DNA of 64,000 bases from an uncultured Clostridia bacterium (GTDB lineage: Bacteria > Bacillota > Clostridia > TANB77 > CAG-508): the NCBI GenBank assembly GCA_944392105.1, contig CALXVM010000001.1:110514-174513 (forward strand), written 5' to 3'. This document shows, in pieces, positions 4,998 through 61,607 of the stretch. Made by a program: the position numbers and the translations under genes. Each line of letters begins with the position of its first letter. The first letter of the stretch is position 1. The notes under the pieces are model-generated. The model was not told the DNA's origin. It did no database searches and saw nothing but the letters and a program-made list of their open reading frames with translations.

Positions 4998-6032
4998 ATG
5001 TCTAATTGGTATGTTCAAACAGGTAAAGATTCAGATGTTGTTATAAGCTCAAGAGTGAGGTTAGCAAGAAATATAAAAGGAATTCCTTTTATAACAAAAT
5101 GTAATCAAGAAAACTTAGAAAAAGTAATTGATATAATGAATAATGTTGTAAATAGCTTAGGTTATGGTTTAAAACTTTTCAAAATGGATAAAATAGACAA
5201 TATAACTAAATTAAGTTTAGTAGAAAAGCATTTAATAAGTCCTGAGTTTATTTCAAAAAATGATAACACAATAACACAAAATCTAAAAGCAATATTGTTA
5301 AATGATGATGAAAATATTTGTATTATGATAAATGAAGAAGATCATTTAAGAATACAAGTTTTTGGTGCAGGTTTAGATTTGGAAAATTTAAAAAATTTAA
5401 TAGTAGAAATAGATGAAAAAATAGATGAGGCTTGCCATTATGCATGTAACGAAAAATATGGATATTTAACAGCTTGCCCAACAAATGTTGGTACAGGAAT
5501 GCGAGCTTCTGTTATGGTTCATCTTCCTGCTTTAACAATGACAGGAAATATTAACAAAGTATTACAAATTGTTAATAATTTTGGGATGAATATAAGAGGC
5601 TTATATGGTGAAGGTTCTCAAAGTGTGGGCAATATATATCAAATTTCAAATAATCAATCTTTAGGTTTAACAGAAGATGAGATTATTAAAAATTTGAATA
5701 TAATAACGTCAAAAATAATAGAGCAAGAAAGATTAGCTAGAAAAAACTTAACAAAAGAACCTTTAGAGTTAGAAGATAGAATATGCCGTTCATACGGTAT
5801 ATTAACTAATGCAAGAAAACTTACATCAGAAGAGTGCTTAAAACTTTGGTCAGATGTAAAGCTAGGGATGGACTTAGGAATAATAGATGGATTAACAGAC
5901 TTAAAAGTAAACAAAATTAAAATATATAGTCAATCTGGAAACTTGCAAAAATATTTAGGTAATCAGTTAAATGCCTATGAAAGAGATATAGAAAGACCTA
6001 AATTAATTAATAAAATAATAAATGAAAATTAA
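4998..6032 (+). CDS. mcsB: McsB protein-arginine kinase (ATP:guanido phosphotransferase family)
   Basis: Phosphagen-kinase-like core (CPTNVGTGMRASVMVHLP). Operon position fits. Confidence 0.85.
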   Translation: MSNWYVQTGKDSDVVISSRVRLARNIKGIPFITKCNQENLEKVIDIMNNVVNSLGYGLKLFKMDKIDNITKLSLVEKHLISPEFISKNDNTITQNLKAILLNDDENICIMINEEDHLRIQVFGAGLDLENLKNLIVEIDEKIDEACHYACNEKYGYLTACPTNVGTGMRASVMVHLPALTMTGNINKVLQIVNNFGMNIRGLYGEGSQSVGNIYQISNNQSLGLTEDEIIKNLNIITSKIIEQERLARKNLTKEPLELEDRICRSYGILTNARKLTSEECLKLWSDVKLGMDLGIIDGLTDLKVNKIKIYSQSGNLQKYLGNQLNAYERDIERPKLINKIINEN

Positions 6033-12047: not shown

Positions 12048-12521
12048 TTAGCAATCTTTTTCTGTTTTACATGGACATTCAGGTTTGCAATGTTCAGGCT
12101 TACATGGAAGCTCTGGCTTGCAAGGTTTATCTGGTTTACATGGTGGACAATCTAATTTTATTCCTTTTAAACATTTTCCTTCATGTTTTCCTTCTACGCA
12201 AACTTTACAATGTTTTACTTCATCAACCCAAATGTTTATCTCATAATATCTATTTGCACATAGTGGTCCAAATACAAATTCACCGTTCTTGTCTGTAAAA
12301 GTATGAGAAACAGGTCTTCTTTCTTCTTTTCCACAATCGCAAACAACTTCTACTAGTTTAACAACTGCATTATCTACAGGGTCACCATAACAATCCTTAA
12401 CAATTCCATATATAACACTGCGGTCATCACATGGTAAAGTAATGTCTAAGTCAAATTGCTTTCCTGTTGCTAAAACACCATCTACATTAACAACTGGGCA
12501 AATTCCCTTATCATATTCCAT
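12048..12521 (-). CDS. Cysteine-rich protein with C-terminal CKP(D/E) repeats; possibly a spore coat or exosporium protein
   Basis: AAAGGAGG site 8 nt upstream of the ATG at 12521. C-terminus reads CPPCKPDKPCKPELPCKPEHCKPECPCKTEKDC. The long N-terminal extension in the ORF track lacks a ribosome-binding site and is low complexity. Confidence 0.55.
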   Translation of the reverse strand: MEYDKGICPVVNVDGVLATGKQFDLDITLPCDDRSVIYGIVKDCYGDPVDNAVVKLVEVVCDCGKEERRPVSHTFTDKNGEFVFGPLCANRYYEINIWVDEVKHCKVCVEGKHEGKCLKGIKLDCPPCKPDKPCKPELPCKPEHCKPECPCKTEKDC

Positions 12522-12672
12522 TATAAATTCCTCCTTTTTAGTATTTATAATATATACTATTCGAATATAAATAAAATGTGACTTATTTCGACATAGAAGA
12601 AATTTAATTAATAAGGAATAAAAAGTGTAATTTATACATAATAATAAAATAGATTTTTTATATGGAGGAAAT

Positions 12673-12888
12673 ATGTTTTTGGTAATTAATAAAAATAAAA
12701 TATATACATATATTGTAACTATTTGCACAGTCGTTGTGCTATTTGTATTATCTTTTGCAATGCTAACTACAGATAATAACACAGTTGTTACATCTGGTAA
12801 TGTTATAAATGAGATGGAAAACGCAGACAGTATTACAAATATAATGAATAAAACAGATAATAATTTAGGGAACAATATGAATATGTAA
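12673..12888 (+). CDS. Small signal-anchored hypothetical protein
   Basis: GGAGG site 4-5 nt upstream of the start. Hydrophobic N-terminus. Divergent from the cysteine-rich gene. Confidence 0.35.
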   Translation: MFLVINKNKIYTYIVTICTVVVLFVLSFAMLTTDNNTVVTSGNVINEMENADSITNIMNKTDNNLGNNMNM

Positions 12889-14165: not shown

Positions 14166-14226
14166 AAAACGCACCACCTATCTAATAATTTTTTATAATA
14201 TAACATAAAAGAAATAAATATTCAAG

Positions 14227-14351
14227 ACGAAGATGTCACTGGGGACGAAGTTGTCACTGGGGACGGAGATTTTTGACAACCTTTTTGCTTTTTGATTTTT
14301 GATTTCTCGTAAAAGTGGTCAAAAATCTCCGTCCCCAGTGACAACTTCGTC
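14227..14351. repeat. Large palindromic element: a perfect 34-bp inverted repeat (14244-14277 and 14318-14351) around a 40-nt spacer, plus a 21-nt direct repeat. Assigned to repeat family B, whose core is GTTGTCActGGGGACGGAGatTTTTGACAAC.
   Basis: gacgaagttgtcactggggacggagatttttgac has its exact reverse complement at gtcaaaaatctccgtccccagtgacaacttcgtc. Related copies occur at 46860-46962. Confidence 0.8.
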
Positions 14352-14433
14352 TCCACGCTCCAAAAGTTTACTCTTGAAAGGGATTAAAAAATATGGTATT
14401 ATATAAAATAGTTTTAAGAAAAGAGAAATTGTT

Positions 14434-17199: not shown

Positions 17200-17200
17200 T

Positions 17201-17227
17201 GGAAATTGGGACCAGGTCCCAATTTCC
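17201..17227. repeat. 27-bp perfect palindrome ggaaattgggacc-a-ggtcccaatttcc (repeat family A). It sits exactly between the convergent stop codons of proS and the next gene.
   Basis: Seen directly in the sequence; related to copies at 31671 and 44300. Confidence 0.8.
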
Positions 17228-17790
17228 TAAAACTTTTTATTAACTGTATTTAAAATTTCTGGATAAATTTTGTAGGCATTTGTTTTCCAATTGTCTACAA
17301 TTTTTTTTGCTTCATCACGTGAACCACAGAATATTTTTAGCTCAAATATACATTTACTGTTTTCGTTTATTTTGCAAGTCACAGTATATTCAGTTTCACT
17401 CTTGGGAGTAAACTCAGCAATTACAGATTCTTGTTCTTTGGTTGCTGAAATTTCATTTTTTAAGTTAATATCAACTTTAAGTTTTATTATTCCAGGTAAC
17501 ATGTCTATAGTTAAATGTAAAGCTTCTCTACCTGAGTCTGTTATTTCATAGACATCTTTAGTATCTTTTTTATATCCTTTAATGTAATTTAATTGTATTA
17601 AGTCTAGCAAAAATTGTTGAAAGTAAAAATAGTTCATATCTTGTGTTGAAAGAATTATTCTGTATAAGTTTGCATTATCTATTGGTGCATATAGTTTGTC
17701 TAAAATGTATAGTATTAGTATTTTATTTTCTGCTAATGTTTCATTGTCTGATGAAAGTTTCACTTCGCTCACTCCTAAATATTTTTTCAT
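17227..17790 (-). CDS. Hypothetical protein
   Basis: ORF with MKKYLGVSEVKL...; no confident domain assignment. Confidence 0.4.
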   Translation of the reverse strand: MKKYLGVSEVKLSSDNETLAENKILILYILDKLYAPIDNANLYRIILSTQDMNYFYFQQFLLDLIQLNYIKGYKKDTKDVYEITDSGREALHLTIDMLPGIIKLKVDINLKNEISATKEQESVIAEFTPKSETEYTVTCKINENSKCIFELKIFCGSRDEAKKIVDNWKTNAYKIYPEILNTVNKKF

Positions 17791-30970: not shown

Positions 30971-31670
30971 AAATGATACAAAAATTTATACTAGACATAG
31001 AATTAAGTTGCCAAAGATAAAAGATAGCAAAAACAAAAGAAAAATTGTAAAAATTTTAATAATACTAGTAATTGCTATAATTGTAGCAAGAACGGTACTT
31101 CTTAGTGTAACTCCAATAATTGAGGAGAGATGTAAAACAACTGCAAAATCTATTGCTACAAAAATATCTAATGAACAAGCGACAATAGTAATGTCAAATT
31201 ATACATATGAGGATTTAATAAATATAATAAAAGATGAAAATGGAAATATAAAAATGATAGGAACAAATATAATTTCTGTAAATGAAATAATATCCGACAT
31301 ACCAATAAAAATACAAGAAGAATTAGAAAAGAGTGAAAACAACAATTTTAATATAAGACTTGGGAGCTTTTTTGGAAGTAAGCTCTTTTCTGGAATGGGA
31401 CCTAACATAAATATAAAAATACAATTAGATGGTTCAGTAGAGACTGATTTAAAATCTGAATTTACTTCACAGGGAATAAACCAGACACTACATAGAATAT
31501 ATTTAGACGTTGTTTGTAAAGTAAGTATTCTTACACCTTTTCAAGTAATAAGTGAAGAAATAAAAAATCAAGTATTGCTAGTTGAAGGAATAATCGCAGG
31601 AGAAATTCCAGATAGTTATTATAATTTAGAGGGGTTAGAAAGCAGAGATGCTATAGAGATAATAAATTAA
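30963..31670 (+). CDS. yunB: Sporulation protein YunB
   Basis: TM anchor and YunB-like core (...RLGSFFGSKLFSGMGPNINIKIQLDGSVETDL...). Overlaps sipL by 8 nt. Confidence 0.65.
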   Translation: MDKNDTKIYTRHRIKLPKIKDSKNKRKIVKILIILVIAIIVARTVLLSVTPIIEERCKTTAKSIATKISNEQATIVMSNYTYEDLINIIKDENGNIKMIGTNIISVNEIISDIPIKIQEELEKSENNNFNIRLGSFFGSKLFSGMGPNINIKIQLDGSVETDLKSEFTSQGINQTLHRIYLDVVCKVSILTPFQVISEEIKNQVLLVEGIIAGEIPDSYYNLEGLESRDAIEIIN

Positions 31671-31729
31671 GAAATTGGGACCAGATCTAAATTTCCTTAT
31701 TGAGGAAATTTAGATCTGGTCCCAATTTC
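31671..31729. repeat. 59-bp palindromic element: 26-bp arms gaaattgggaccagatctaaatttcc around a 7-nt centre (repeat family A). It begins 1 nt after the yunB stop.
   Basis: A perfect inverted repeat seen directly in the sequence. Confidence 0.85.
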
Positions 31730-31794
31730 TCATTTACACAAATCTAACTTTATGGTAATATATTATAAGAAGAAATAAGAAAGGAATAATTTAA

Positions 31795-43273: not shown

Positions 43274-44299
43274 ATGAAAGAGCAAATTGAAAAGATTAGA
43301 CAGTCAGCACTAGAAGAAATTAAAAATGCAAATGATGAAAAAGTCCTAAATGATGCTAGAGTTAAATACTTAGGAAAAAAGGGAGAGCTAACTTTAATTT
43401 TAAGAGGTATGGGTGGACCTTCACCAGAAGAAAGACCTGTAATAGGAAGCTTAGTAAATGAAGTTAGAGACGAAATTGAAAATTTAATAGAAGAAAGAGA
43501 AAAAGAATTTAAAACAGCAGAAATAAAAAGAAAGCTAGAGCATGAAAAGATAGATGTAACAATGCCAGGTAAAAAGATAAACTTAGGCAGTGTTCATCCT
43601 ATAACACAAATAATAAAAGATATGGAAGAAATATTTATAGGAATGGGGTATGAAATAGCAGATGGACCAGAGGTAGAACTTGCAGAGTATAATTTTGATA
43701 AATTAAACACACCACCAGACCATCCAGCAAGAGATATACAAGATACTTTTTACGTAACAGATGACATAGTTCTAAGGTCACAAACATCACCTGTTCAAGC
43801 TAGAGTAATGGAAACACAAAAACCACCAATTAAAATAGTATGTCCTGGTGTGGTTTATCGTTCAGACAGTGTAGATGCAACACACTCACCAGTATTCCAC
43901 CAAATAGAAGGATTAGTAGTTGATAAAAATATATCAATGGGAGATTTAAAAGGAACATTAGAAATGTTTGCTAAAAAGTGCTTAGGAGAAAAAACACAAA
44001 TAAGATTTAGACCACATCATTTCCCATTTACAGAACCTAGTGCAGAAGCAGACGTATCATGCTTCGTATGTGGAGGAAAAGGATGTAGAGTGTGTAAAGG
44101 CGAAGGCTGGATAGAACTTTTAGGATGCGGTATGGTACACCCTAATGTACTTAGAAACTGCGGAATAGACCCAGAAGAATATTCAGGATTTGCATTTGGC
44201 TGTGGAATAGAAAGAATAGCTATGGCAAAATTCGGAATAGACGACATGCGTTTATTATACGAAAATGATGTACGTTTTTTAAAACAATTTGGAAATTAG
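43274..44299 (+). CDS. pheS: Phenylalanine--tRNA ligase alpha subunit
   Basis: [17 protein letters not shown]...; class II motifs; GAAGGAG site. Confidence 0.95.
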
Positions 44300-44384
44300 G
44301 AAATTGGGACCAGATCCAAATTTCCGAAAATGAGAAATTGGGACCAGATCTAAATTTCCGAAATTAAGAAATTAGTGACAGGTC
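44300..44384 (+). repeat. Tandem direct repeats (two full copies and one partial) of gaaattgggaccagatc(c/t)aaatttccgaaa (repeat family A), inserted between pheS and pheT
   Basis: Copies at 44300-44330 and 44335-44366, with a partial copy at 44368-44384. Confidence 0.85.
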
Positions 44385-44438
44385 AAAATATTATATGTAT
44401 AAGAAAAAAGCAGAAAAATTAGAAAGGATGTAAAGTAA

Positions 44439-46859: not shown

Positions 46860-46962
46860 TTGTCAGTTGTCAAAGAAGAGGTTGTCAGCGGGGACGGAGA
46901 AATTTGACAACCTTGTCAATGAAAACGGAGAAGCTGTCAGTGAGGACAGAGATTTTGATACA
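46860..46962 (+). repeat. Cluster of family B repeat units (gttgtcagcggggacggagaaatttgacaacc plus degenerate copies), directly after the pheT stop
   Basis: Unit at 46881-46912; degenerate unit at 46934-46962; partial units flank them. Homologous to the palindromic element at 14227-14351. Confidence 0.75.
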
Positions 46963-47010
46963 AAAAAGAAATAGCTCTTTAAATTATAAAAAGAAGCTAT
47001 TTCTTTTTTG
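46962..47010. terminator. Bidirectional rho-independent terminator
   Basis: A-run, then agaaatagct...agctatttct, then T6. Confidence 0.8.
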
Positions 47011-55289: not shown

Positions 55290-55397
55290 TTTTTTTAGCC
55301 AAATAGTTTAAAATAAACATTTGGCAATTTTTAAATAAAAGCACATATATTAATAAGGAAATATGTATGTGCAATACAAATTAATATAGTTATGAAT

Positions 55398-55445
55398 GCC
55401 TTGATAGCTCAGTTGGTAGAGCAAGGGACTGAAAATCTTTGGTGC
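55398..55445 (+). pseudogene. Degenerate 5' half of tRNA-Phe (acceptor, D and anticodon arms only), a duplicated fragment
   Basis: gccttgatagctcagttggtagagcaagggactgaaaatctttgg. It matches the intact tRNA-Phe up to the anticodon arm and lacks the T arm. Confidence 0.7.
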
Positions 55446-55453
55446 AATTTAAT

Positions 55454-55529
55454 GCCTTGATAGCTCAGTTGGTAGAGCAAAGGACTGAAAATCCTTGTGT
55501 CACTGGTTCGATTCCAGTTCAAGGCACCA
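55454..55529 (+). tRNA. tRNA-Phe (anticodon GAA)
   Basis: 76-nt cloverleaf with anticodon loop cTGAAaa and 3' CCA. Confidence 0.9.
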
Positions 55530-60857: not shown

Positions 60858-61607
60858 ATGAAAGATTTTTTAAAGAAAAAATTAGCTGATTTAGATTTGG
60901 TTATTTTTGATTTAGACGGTACTTTAATTGATTCAAATGGTACACATAATTATTTGGATATCGAATTAGCTCGCTCACTTGGAGAAAATAAAAGTTCAGA
61001 AGAAATCTTACAAGAAAGAGATGAGTTTATAAAAAATAATAGTACAGGCGATATATACTTAAATTATTGTGAGTATTTAAAAACAAAATATAATTCTGTT
61101 TTATCGGGAAAAGAAATTTTACAATTTCGAAGAAATTTATCAAAAAAAATTTCAAAAGATATTAAATATAAACCAGATGCAGACAAGATTATAAAATATT
61201 TAAAAAATCAAAATATAAAACTTGCTTTGGGCACAGTTTCAAGAAAAGAAACCATAGATATTTATATCAATGAAAATGAAAATATCAAAAATAAATGTAA
61301 TATTAAAGATTATTTTGACCTAATAGTAACTAAAGACGATGTAAAATTTAAAAAACCTAATCCAGAAGTTTATAATAAAATAATTGAAATTTTTCAAATA
61401 AATGACTTATCAAGATGTATTGTTATAGAAGATTCATTAACAGGTGTTCTTGCGGCAAAAAATGCTAATCTTGATGTTATAGTTATTTATGATGAATATT
61501 CTGATAAAGATAGAGAAAAAATAAATGAACTTGCAGATTATAGAATTTCAAATTTTAAAGAATTAATAAATTTGTTTGAAGAAAGTAAAAAGAGAGGAGA
61601 AAATTAA
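60858..61607 (+). CDS. HAD-superfamily hydrolase (beta-phosphoglucomutase-like, subfamily IA)
   Basis: LVIFDLDGTLIDS...; GAGG site. Confidence 0.7.
   Translation: MKDFLKKKLADLDLVIFDLDGTLIDSNGTHNYLDIELARSLGENKSSEEILQERDEFIKNNSTGDIYLNYCEYLKTKYNSVLSGKEILQFRRNLSKKISKDIKYKPDADKIIKYLKNQNIKLALGTVSRKETIDIYINENENIKNKCNIKDYFDLIVTKDDVKFKKPNPEVYNKIIEIFQINDLSRCIVIEDSLTGVLAAKNANLDVIVIYDEYSDKDREKINELADYRISNFKELINLFEESKKRGEN

Follow-up and report, generated by a model that had tools for sequence, protein, structure and literature searches.

Repetitive extragenic palindromic (REP) sequences and their composite forms, the bacterial interspersed mosaic elements (BIMEs) and REP doublets forming hairpins (REPINs), are short intergenic palindromic units that occur singly or as inverted doublets able to form a long hairpin, as described for E. 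coli TnpA_REP (4ER8) and for Pseudomonas (Bertels & Rainey 2011, PMC3116915). The gene for the cognate enzyme, a REP-associated tyrosine transposase (RAYT) of the Y1/HUH type, is bracketed by inverted units, an arrangement termed a REPtron. Here we describe a repeat of this kind at positions 14226-14355 of a 64,000-nucleotide stretch of DNA (hereafter the window; contig CALXVM010000001.1 of assembly GCA_944392105.1) from an uncultured Clostridia bacterium, with a second copy behind the gene pheT. The element is very probably a non-coding, non-autonomous REP/REPIN (BIME)-type repeat of a RAYT system, present as a convergent doublet at 14226-14355 and as a solo unit with decayed neighbours after pheT. 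The hairpin repeat, referred to below as Family B, belongs to a kind of bacterial repeat that is already known but has not been described as a family before; it is no new kind of system.

A second described group provides the best fit. Di Nocera et al. (2013, PMC3733652) reported RAYT-like genes flanked by inverted repeats that contain the motif GGGGWSAS and form moderately abundant families (TIRtrons, with TIRYT transposases); Firmicutes and Clostridia are nowhere mentioned in that survey. In Quentin et al. (2018, PMC6006769), TIRYTs are equated with TnpA_Y1 subclass 2.1, a set of long proteins with a C-terminal helix-turn-helix (HTH) that corresponds to RAYT Group 1 of Bertels et al. (2017, PMC5581495). 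The same paper and PMC5581495 describe Group 1 as "also found in the Clostridia"; subclass 2.1 is reported from ∼15% of bacterial strains, and PMC6006769 states that no REP-like secondary structure was found beside subclass 2.1 genes. The lineage studied here is covered by neither PMC3733652 nor PMC6006769, the latter naming Clostridia just twice.

Just as described in the original prediction, which was made from the sequence alone, the core of the window element is a perfect 34-nt inverted repeat around a T-rich 40-nt spacer: 14244-14277 (GACGAAGTTGTCACTGGGGACGGAGATTTTTGAC) is the exact reverse complement of 14318-14351, and the spacer (14278-14317; 21 T) would form the loop of a long hairpin. 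A repeat search extended the arms to 45 nt at 93% complementarity (14240-14284 and 14311-14355, one mismatch per side). On the left, 14226-14243 is a tandem copy of 14244-14261 with an 18-nt period and 17 of 18 positions identical (94%). The full element, 14226-14355, is slightly wider than the 125 bp (14227-14351) first proposed, and the additional direct repeat that had been noted exists with a length of 18 nt instead of 21.

Read from left to right, the REPIN/BIME-like doublet, delimited by the repeat search and by fold energy, comprises an extra "half unit" (14226-14243, plus strand; GACGAAGATGTCACTGGG, made up of the 5′ arm and the first part of the loop and arranged in tandem with the unit that follows), a left unit (14244-14284, plus strand), the spacer, and an inverted right unit (14311-14355, minus strand). 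The minimum-energy DNA fold of the left unit is the 7-bp stem anticipated earlier, GTTGTCA/TGACAAC (14250-14280), with GGGGACGGAG in the loop ctGGGGACGGAGatttt and an energy of -4.0 kcal/mol, while the 3′ arm GACCAC of the right unit gives a weaker small hairpin (-2.2 kcal/mol). Folded as single-stranded DNA, the whole 130-nt element reached -47.6 kcal/mol (z = -13.3). The pattern GTTGTCAnnGGGGACGGAGnnnTTTGACAAC, which represents a unit of ∼31 nt, matched the window at 14250 (+), 14315 (-, one mismatch) and 46881 (+), with 0.00 matches expected from shuffled sequence. Two sigma-70-like promoters on opposite strands bracket the element exactly, in agreement with its placement in a divergent promoter region: TTGAAT-17-TATATT (14225-14197, minus strand) serves a 60-aa open reading frame (ORF), and TTGAAA-17-TATTAT (14374-14402, plus strand) serves a methyltransferase gene. 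Because the 3′ stem arm is TTGACA, every unit contains a consensus -35 hexamer, or TTGACC in the right arm (14272-14277, plus strand; 14317-14322, minus strand, the right arm; 46902-46907, plus strand), and insertion of a unit upstream of an AT-rich -10 sequence could create a promoter.

The recurrence of the unit after pheT, also claimed earlier, corresponds to a second locus at 46861-46966, with the pheT stop codon (46859) on one side and a terminator, formed by a hairpin and a T-run at ∼46970-47010, on the other. Degenerate half units (TTGTCAGTTGTCAAAGAAGAG) follow the stop codon directly (46861-46880, plus strand), where strain contigs L120 and L124 have TTGTCAGCGGGGGGCGGAGAG. These are followed by a solo REP-like unit in sense with pheT (46879-46913), identified by pattern match and folding, with a 9-bp stem AGGTTGTCA/TGACAACCT and the loop gcgGGGACggagaaatt (-7.5 kcal/mol, z = -3.5). 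Comparison of strains points to a decayed or fused unit, CTTGTCAATGAAAACGGAGAAG-CTGTCAGTGAGGACAGAG, at 46914-46951 (plus strand). L124 has a second full unit at this place; the window form of the segment looks like a deletion between units, and it resembles an inner motif, TTGTCAGtAGGGACAC, that lies beside the transposase gene of the related locus L002 (see below).

The unit is dispersed well beyond the window. A strict-pattern scan of 185,579 species-representative genomes, in line with the genome-wide search called for in the original prediction, recovered further copies in 23 intergenic stretches from 15 assemblies, all of them metagenome-assembled genomes (MAGs) of uncultured Clostridia with 25-31% GC from rabbit, chicken and human gut. 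In the fetched loci, 61 units were found with ≤6 substitutions versus 0 after shuffling. The basic unit is a hairpin of ∼27-31 nt with the stem (GT)TGTCA(A)/(T)TGACA(AC) and a loop that opens with GGGGACGGAG, and its 27-nt core (TGTCAATGGGGACGGAGATTTTTGACA) is near-invariant, with changes at three or four positions only. Units were found after genes, before genes, by tRNA or transfer-messenger RNA (tmRNA) genes (L001, L006, L013, L027) and in the groES-groEL gap (L014). The extra sites in the fetched DNA, and likewise the window, suggest about one site in every 30 kb. Some orthologous positions hold the unit in more than one species (L007/L010 and L017/L022), which points to long residence. 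Solo units were as common as doublets. All 13 short-range doublets (the window and 12 others in L001-L022) are convergent, plus then minus, and none is divergent; their spacers are AT-rich, mutually unrelated and 12-60 nt long. Inspection by eye of the flanks of six doublets found no target-site duplication.

A scan of IMG/VR viral contigs found four with the unit, in which it follows a tRNA and has no apparent phage-specific role. In three of these (L025-L027), a 95-bp doublet stands immediately after a tRNA 3′ end (e.g. L027 6613-6707 and 7269-7363). A second, near-identical copy with the same 41-nt spacer follows 656 bp downstream, so that doublet and spacer have been copied together as a whole. 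An ORF for a 120-aa membrane protein lies between the two copies, and the second overlaps the start of a 138-aa ORF. In full-text literature, the string GGGGACGGAG occurred in 33 papers, and the 20 of these that were listed are all unrelated eukaryotic or primer papers.

The sole gene found between two units encodes a Y1/HUH transposase. In L002, units at 5990 (+) and 6900 (-), 900 bp apart, surround an ORF of 225 aa, and a second MAG (L013) repeats this gene-to-unit arrangement; unit-flanked transposase genes were found in relatives at L002, L013, L038-L045, L053 and L128-L137. The upstream unit is in sense and the downstream unit antisense. Because this polarity equals that of the two units within a doublet, the doublet looks like a gene-less REPtron, and the MAG that carries L002 also contains a gene-less doublet form (L021).

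The L002 protein matched Pfam Y1_Tnp with 49.3 bits (cutoff 23) and NCBIfam REP_Tyr_transpos with 78.6 bits, 1.4 bits under the cutoff of 80, versus 23 bits for the NCBIfam IS200 model (cutoff 55). It is longer than the REP-associated transposase of E. coli in 4ER8 (225 versus 165 aa), a structure that includes a bound REP hairpin. Pfam HTH_11, HTH_DeoR and HTH_38 matched residues 190-221 (E = 2.6e-5 to 2.4e-4, near or below their cutoffs), and an AlphaFold model (predicted local distance difference test, pLDDT, 75.5) contains a helical C-terminal domain at 164-224 (pLDDT 76-91). The only sequence match in the PDB of a profile built from 19 homologues was 4ER8 (E = 5e-4), which was also the best fold match of the AlphaFold model (E = 5e-6; template-modelling score, TM, 0.62), followed by the TnpA proteins of ISDra2 and IS608. 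Invariant among homologues are H60-A-H62 and the class-2 tyrosine motif Y120-x3-N-P (Y120...N124-P125), as that motif is defined in PMC6006769. Taken together, profile scores and modelled fold lean strongly to a RAYT rather than an IS200 TnpA. At least 1,214 proteins of the collection belong to the transposase family, and contigs of only ∼1 kb carry many of them, as would be expected if assemblies break at the flanking repeats.

The flanking units closest to those of the window belong to a RAYT designated P0043, whose gene stands beside ssrA (tmRNA) and mutL and was found on many contigs from the same cohorts. Its upstream unit (L130/L131) shares 95% identity over 44 nt with window 46880-46923, including the 3′ extension ACCTTrTCAATGAA, and the unit downstream of the gene matches the arms of the window doublet with 97% identity over 30 nt. 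Furthermore, a half unit and a full unit stand upstream of P0043 (L130-L132), as they do at window 14230-14283. Among the contigs shown, no sample held both the window species and P0043. Judging from the likeness of the repeats, P0043 or an orthologue presumably serves the units of the window. At the RAYT loci of L013, L041 and L128-L137, the downstream unit abuts the 3′ end of the tmRNA gene (ssrA), after which comes mutL, and the upstream contexts are of two kinds, pyrD/DHODB or GtrA. Such constancy of place is what a resident gene in single copy typically shows, in contrast to an insertion sequence. At many loci (e.g. L038-L065), a conserved promoter-like block, aaaTTCGACAaa-N17-TGaTATAAT, was observed between the upstream unit and the RAYT start codon (-40 to -90).

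To compare flanking repeats over a wider range, 80 metagenomic loci of RAYT homologues with 34-70% protein identity were fetched. In 17 loci the Family B core stood upstream of the gene (+) at a distance of 110-208 nt, and in ∼25 it stood downstream (-) at 7-222 nt; its mismatches increased as RAYT protein identity fell. GGGAC itself was found in sense ≤300 nt upstream in 68/75 loci and in antisense ≤450 nt downstream in 70/75, compared with a background of 0.19 per kb per strand. The flanking repeats share one grammar (stem, GGGAC, loop, stem), and in the consensus of these hairpins, nnnTGnCAATGGGGACGGnnnnTTTTGnCAnnn, the sole invariant columns are those of GGGAC, within the loop. The stems differ wholly between clades yet remain complementary (TGTCAA/TTGACA, TGCCAAA/TTTGGCA, GGTCAA/TTGACC; also TGGAAAC/GTTTCCA, TGATTTT/AAAATCA, GAACACTT/AAGTGTTC and GTGATCCTTTTT/AAAAAGGATCAC).

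Covariation was measured in 150 windows centred on gene-flanking GGGAC, not pre-selected for a stem, using one fixed geometry. Pairing occupied 67.1% of cells versus 46.1% in shuffles (0/500), and the covariation score was 0.543 versus 0.216 in shuffles (0/500), with slid controls at 0.17-0.27. For each of the six core pairs, 41-68 of the 150 sequences differed on both sides from the commonest pair and were still paired. The excess over shuffles means that the hairpin is real and that GGGAC is its constant feature; by this measure, the stem is maintained by compensatory change. The suggestion that GGGAC within a hairpin loop is a shared recognition element for a protein, a transposase or an RNase is supported as regards a transposase, the unit being found on both sides of a Y1/HUH gene of RAYT type in related genomes. 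Nothing was found in favor of an RNase or a small RNA: in an Rfam scan of the 64-kb window, three tRNAs alone reached the gathering score and the repeat had no match.

Tandem half units, consisting of a 5′ arm, GGGAC and 0-9 nt with a period of 14-22 nt, precede the full hairpin in RAYT-flanking repeats with quite different stems (L041, L070, L074, L090, L099, L114, L130-L132, L022 and window 14226-14261; e.g. TGCCATTGGGGACG three times and GAACACTTGGGGAC twice). They may hint at a joining point just 3′ of GGGAC, either as the footprint of cleavage and joining or as a product of slippage. An origin by nested insertion was considered for L022 and rejected, as the matching 3′ arms are missing.

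Compared with the TIRYT group, the protein described here is likewise longer than canonical RAYTs and has a C-terminal HTH, its gene is flanked by inverted repeats with a G-rich motif, and the flanking repeat is a moderately abundant family of singles, dimers and clusters. The published GGGGWSAS may have its counterpart in GGGGACGG of the main unit, which matches 7/8 positions (G for A at position 7), and in the inner motif (A)GGGACAC of L002, L021 and L052; other homologues have GGGGACAC or GGGGACAG. Based on length, domain layout and flank motif, membership in the HTH-bearing TIRYT/subclass 2.1 group is likely. The difference lies in the flanks, each of which here folds into a small hairpin whose loop holds the conserved motif and whose stems change in a compensatory way across the 80 loci. 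For this clade at least, the aligned flanks show a REP-like structure, unlike the published statement on subclass 2.1.

Canonical REPs are matched by the short intergenic palindromic units, occurring as singles and inverted long-hairpin doublets, by the transposase gene bracketed by inverted units, by a HUH/Y1 enzyme whose best match in sequence and fold is 4ER8, and by the lack of target-site duplications and the conserved gene position by ssrA/mutL. They differ in having GT[AG]G at the 5′ foot of the stem, where the present family instead has a conserved GGGAC in a large loop (∼11-17 nt); the enzyme here has the extra HTH domain and a score just under the NCBIfam RAYT cutoff, and the host is a low-GC Firmicute with an apparent copy number of tens, not hundreds. 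The IS200/IS605 insertion sequences and their gene-less derivatives, the palindrome-associated transposable elements (PATEs), share the Y1/HUH fold (2VJV and 2XO6 being the next-best fold matches), recognition of subterminal hairpins in single-stranded DNA and the absence of target duplication. However, IS200 TnpA is a dimeric protein of ∼130-150 aa whose NCBIfam model is far from its cutoff here, the ends of those elements are two different hairpins in direct rather than inverted orientation, and the units described here greatly outnumber a gene that stays at one conserved locus. The CGTC-tagged REPs, an orphan superfamily (PMC3733652), are small AT-stemmed hairpins that are mostly head-to-head dimers, and the reverse complement of GGGACG contains CGTC. 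Their tag, however, ends an 8-9-bp stem with a 4-5-nt loop and a CCA tail, whereas here it sits inside an 11-17-nt loop, and they have no associated transposase; the resemblance is probably superficial.

A mechanism can be proposed on the model of E. coli TnpA_REP (4ER8), the TnpA proteins of IS608 and ISDra2, and the REPIN model (PMC3116915). A unit would fold in single-stranded DNA, such as that of the lagging-strand template, and the RAYT would bind the folded hairpin and read the bases GGGAC(G), with the extra HTH domain possibly adding recognition of duplex or loop. Cleavage and rejoining would proceed through Tyr120 (Y-x3-N-P) and the H60-A-H62 metal site, and over evolutionary time units or doublets would be copied, excised or rearranged without target-site duplications. 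Indirect signs of mobilisation by the transposase may be seen in the polymorphism of unit number and orientation between strains and in the copied doublets of L025-L027. The doublet can also extrude as a 50-bp hairpin or cruciform, which would account for the slippage between strains, the inverted spacer and the breaks in assemblies. Any influence on the genes nearby, given the position of the doublet between divergent -35 boxes and of the solo unit in the pheT 3′ untranslated region, would be secondary.

Several observations weigh against a REP/REPIN-type repeat moved by a RAYT. The 5′ GTAG foot that defines canonical REPs is absent, the L002 protein falls short of the NCBIfam RAYT cutoff (78.6 vs 80), and the left-unit hairpin is weak when folded singly (-4.0 kcal/mol, z = -1.4), although support for the stem is the covariation between families, not folding energy. 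No RAYT gene was found in the window (tblastn with the L002 RAYT, best E = 2), nor in ∼10 kb beyond each window end, a search that turned up a further unit of the sister repeat Family A (see below) behind gatB and, at the right end, a mobile element; we infer the cognate enzyme of the window organism from its relatives. Copy number looks modest, with a site about every 30 kb of the sampled DNA. That the 27-nt core hardly varies among species-level MAGs could also reflect host function or recent horizontal spread.

Twenty strain contigs were inspected, 10 per window locus, and the repeat was present in 20/20; no empty site was seen, and transposition itself is thus not demonstrated. At the first locus, ten contigs encode an identical methyltransferase and all ten carry the element. 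Two of them (the window and L034) have the 18-nt half unit in duplicate, whereas five have it once. L033, where the element lies at a contig end, has a spacer that is the exact reverse complement of the window's 40-nt spacer, plus an extra unit; L035 has a diverged spacer, and four first-locus contigs end in the element or have Ns there. At the pheT locus, 8/10 contigs do not differ from the window; L124 carries an additional full unit in tandem (+49 nt), and a third form is present in L120. Polymorphism among strains, as the original prediction envisaged, was therefore found at both loci as variants of unit number and spacer orientation, and not as presence or absence of the insertion. These changes fit slippage, template switching and recombination at hairpins, and could also be enzyme-mediated rearrangement.

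One alternative is that the repeat is primarily a host-function site, bound by a nucleoid or regulatory protein or transcribed as a terminator or mRNA stabiliser under selection, with the link to a transposase being secondary or historical. The near-invariant core across 15 species-level MAGs would suit such a role, as would the sites kept at orthologous positions in different species (L007/L010, L017/L022), retention in 20/20 strain contigs and the sense orientation of the solo unit within the pheT 3′ untranslated region; canonical REPs bind IHF and gyrase and stabilise mRNA, according to PMC6006769. On the other hand, among the loci compared the unit keeps to no constant place with respect to promoters or the ends of genes, its sequence co-diverges with that of the adjacent RAYT, and unit number changes freely between strains. 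No T-run follows the doublet at 14226-14355, and the pheT copy is followed by a separate terminator. We consider a primary host function improbable, and it would in any case be compatible with a RAYT-dependent origin and spread.

The dimensions of the element (125 bp, with 34-45-nt inverted arms) also fit those of a conventional miniature inverted-repeat transposable element (MITE), in which the arms would be terminal inverted repeats left by a DDE-type insertion sequence after its deletion and a DDE transposase would move the element in double-stranded form, and the duplication of a whole doublet, spacer included, in L025-L027 is in line with this. However, none of the six doublets examined has a target-site duplication, solo units are as common as doublets, and the one gene found between two units is Y1/HUH and not DDE. 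Moreover, the stems within each arm covary, which a double-stranded terminal inverted repeat does not need. A MITE origin is highly improbable.

Finally, the exactly reversed spacer of L033, together with the position of the element exactly between two divergent promoters, invites the idea of an inverton, in which a site-specific recombinase flips the spacer between the inverted repeats and so regulates both promoters. This is hardly credible: the 40-nt spacer contains no good promoter (a scan of the element gave just one 9/12 match, at 14322-14295 on the minus strand, using the unit's own TTGACC) and, being so short, would not permit synapsis of a recombinase by looping, no gene for a recombinase occurs within 3 kb, and the unit is also found solo, in 3′ untranslated regions, by tRNAs and inside operons (groES-groEL, L014). 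Hairpin template switching or misassembly explains L033 equally well, given its contig end and extra unit. An operator for CtsR, Spo0A or another regulator was dismissed for want of a fixed promoter geometry and because the whole 27-mer is conserved, an integron attC site as the arms misfit RYYYAAC/GTTRRRY and the neighbours are housekeeping genes, and a CRISPR since the copies are inverted, not direct with unique spacers.

The REP/REPIN-type interpretation of Family B may extend to a second repeat of the window, Family A, which is not part of Family B but obeys the same stem-GGGAC-loop-stem grammar (GGAAATT-GGGAC-cagatcta/caggtccc-AATTTCC), so that both families place GGGAC in a hairpin loop, as had been proposed. 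Family A occurs as a perfect palindrome (GGAAATT GGGACcaggtccc AATTTCC, 17201-17227), as a convergent doublet with 33-nt arms (94%) 5 nt apart (31664-31735), and as tandem units upstream of pheT (44293-44392, plus strand); the unit after gatB lies just outside the window (L138 1696-1722). Half of the 20 GGGAC pentamers in the window fall within Families A and B. A unit with a palindromic loop similar to Family A, AAATT GGGACagtccc AATTT, flanks a RAYT homologue of 38% identity in L102, and by analogy Family A may also be linked to a transposase. At the proS/DUF4364 intergenic site, L028 (a 229-kb contig from the European Nucleotide Archive, ENA; 5767-6000) differs over ∼200 nt from window 17200-17230 and has a degenerate copy (ggaaattgggaaaaaagggac...) in place of the Family A palindrome.

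Two further features of the window were recorded. The 5′ part of tRNA-Phe is copied (47 nt, 96%; 55395-55441 versus 55451-55497) 56 nt upstream of the real tRNA-Phe gene, and strain contigs L141 and L142, which share the window's 249-aa HAD hydrolase gene (60858-61607), have nearby a phage-type integrase, an HTH_17 excisionase-like gene, a Mob_Pre relaxase and a radical-SAM/sugar cluster. This gene content suggests an integrative mobilisable element at tRNA-Phe, occupying ∼55.5-64 kb of the window, with the integrase and relaxase known from the strain contigs. The ORF at 12048-12875 (minus strand) has at its end a repeat rich in Cys, Pro and Lys, CPPCKPDKPCKPELPCKPEHCKPECPCKTEKDC, and is reminiscent of a protein of the spore coat or exosporium; in strain contigs just its 157-aa C-terminal part is called as a gene.

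Whether the grammar of a variable stem, 0-3 nt, an invariant GGGAC(G/A), ∼6-10 nt and a complementary stem is the general recognition code of the HTH-bearing RAYT subclass (2.1/TIRYT/Group 1) is a proposition that we regard as evenly balanced. If true, a third REP superfamily would join the GTAG- and CGTC-tagged ones, with Families A and B as two examples of it; its enzyme would read bases of the loop and not a foot tetranucleotide, and the half units would mark the point of cleavage and joining. A GGGAC-loop hairpin, with its natural compensatory stem variants, is a concrete candidate DNA substrate for a large RAYT subclass whose target has been unclear. The interpretation would explain two conspicuous palindromic repeat families of poorly known uncultured gut Clostridia, together with the assembly breaks that occur there, and the units, being hypervariable between otherwise identical strains, may serve as typing markers in metagenomes.

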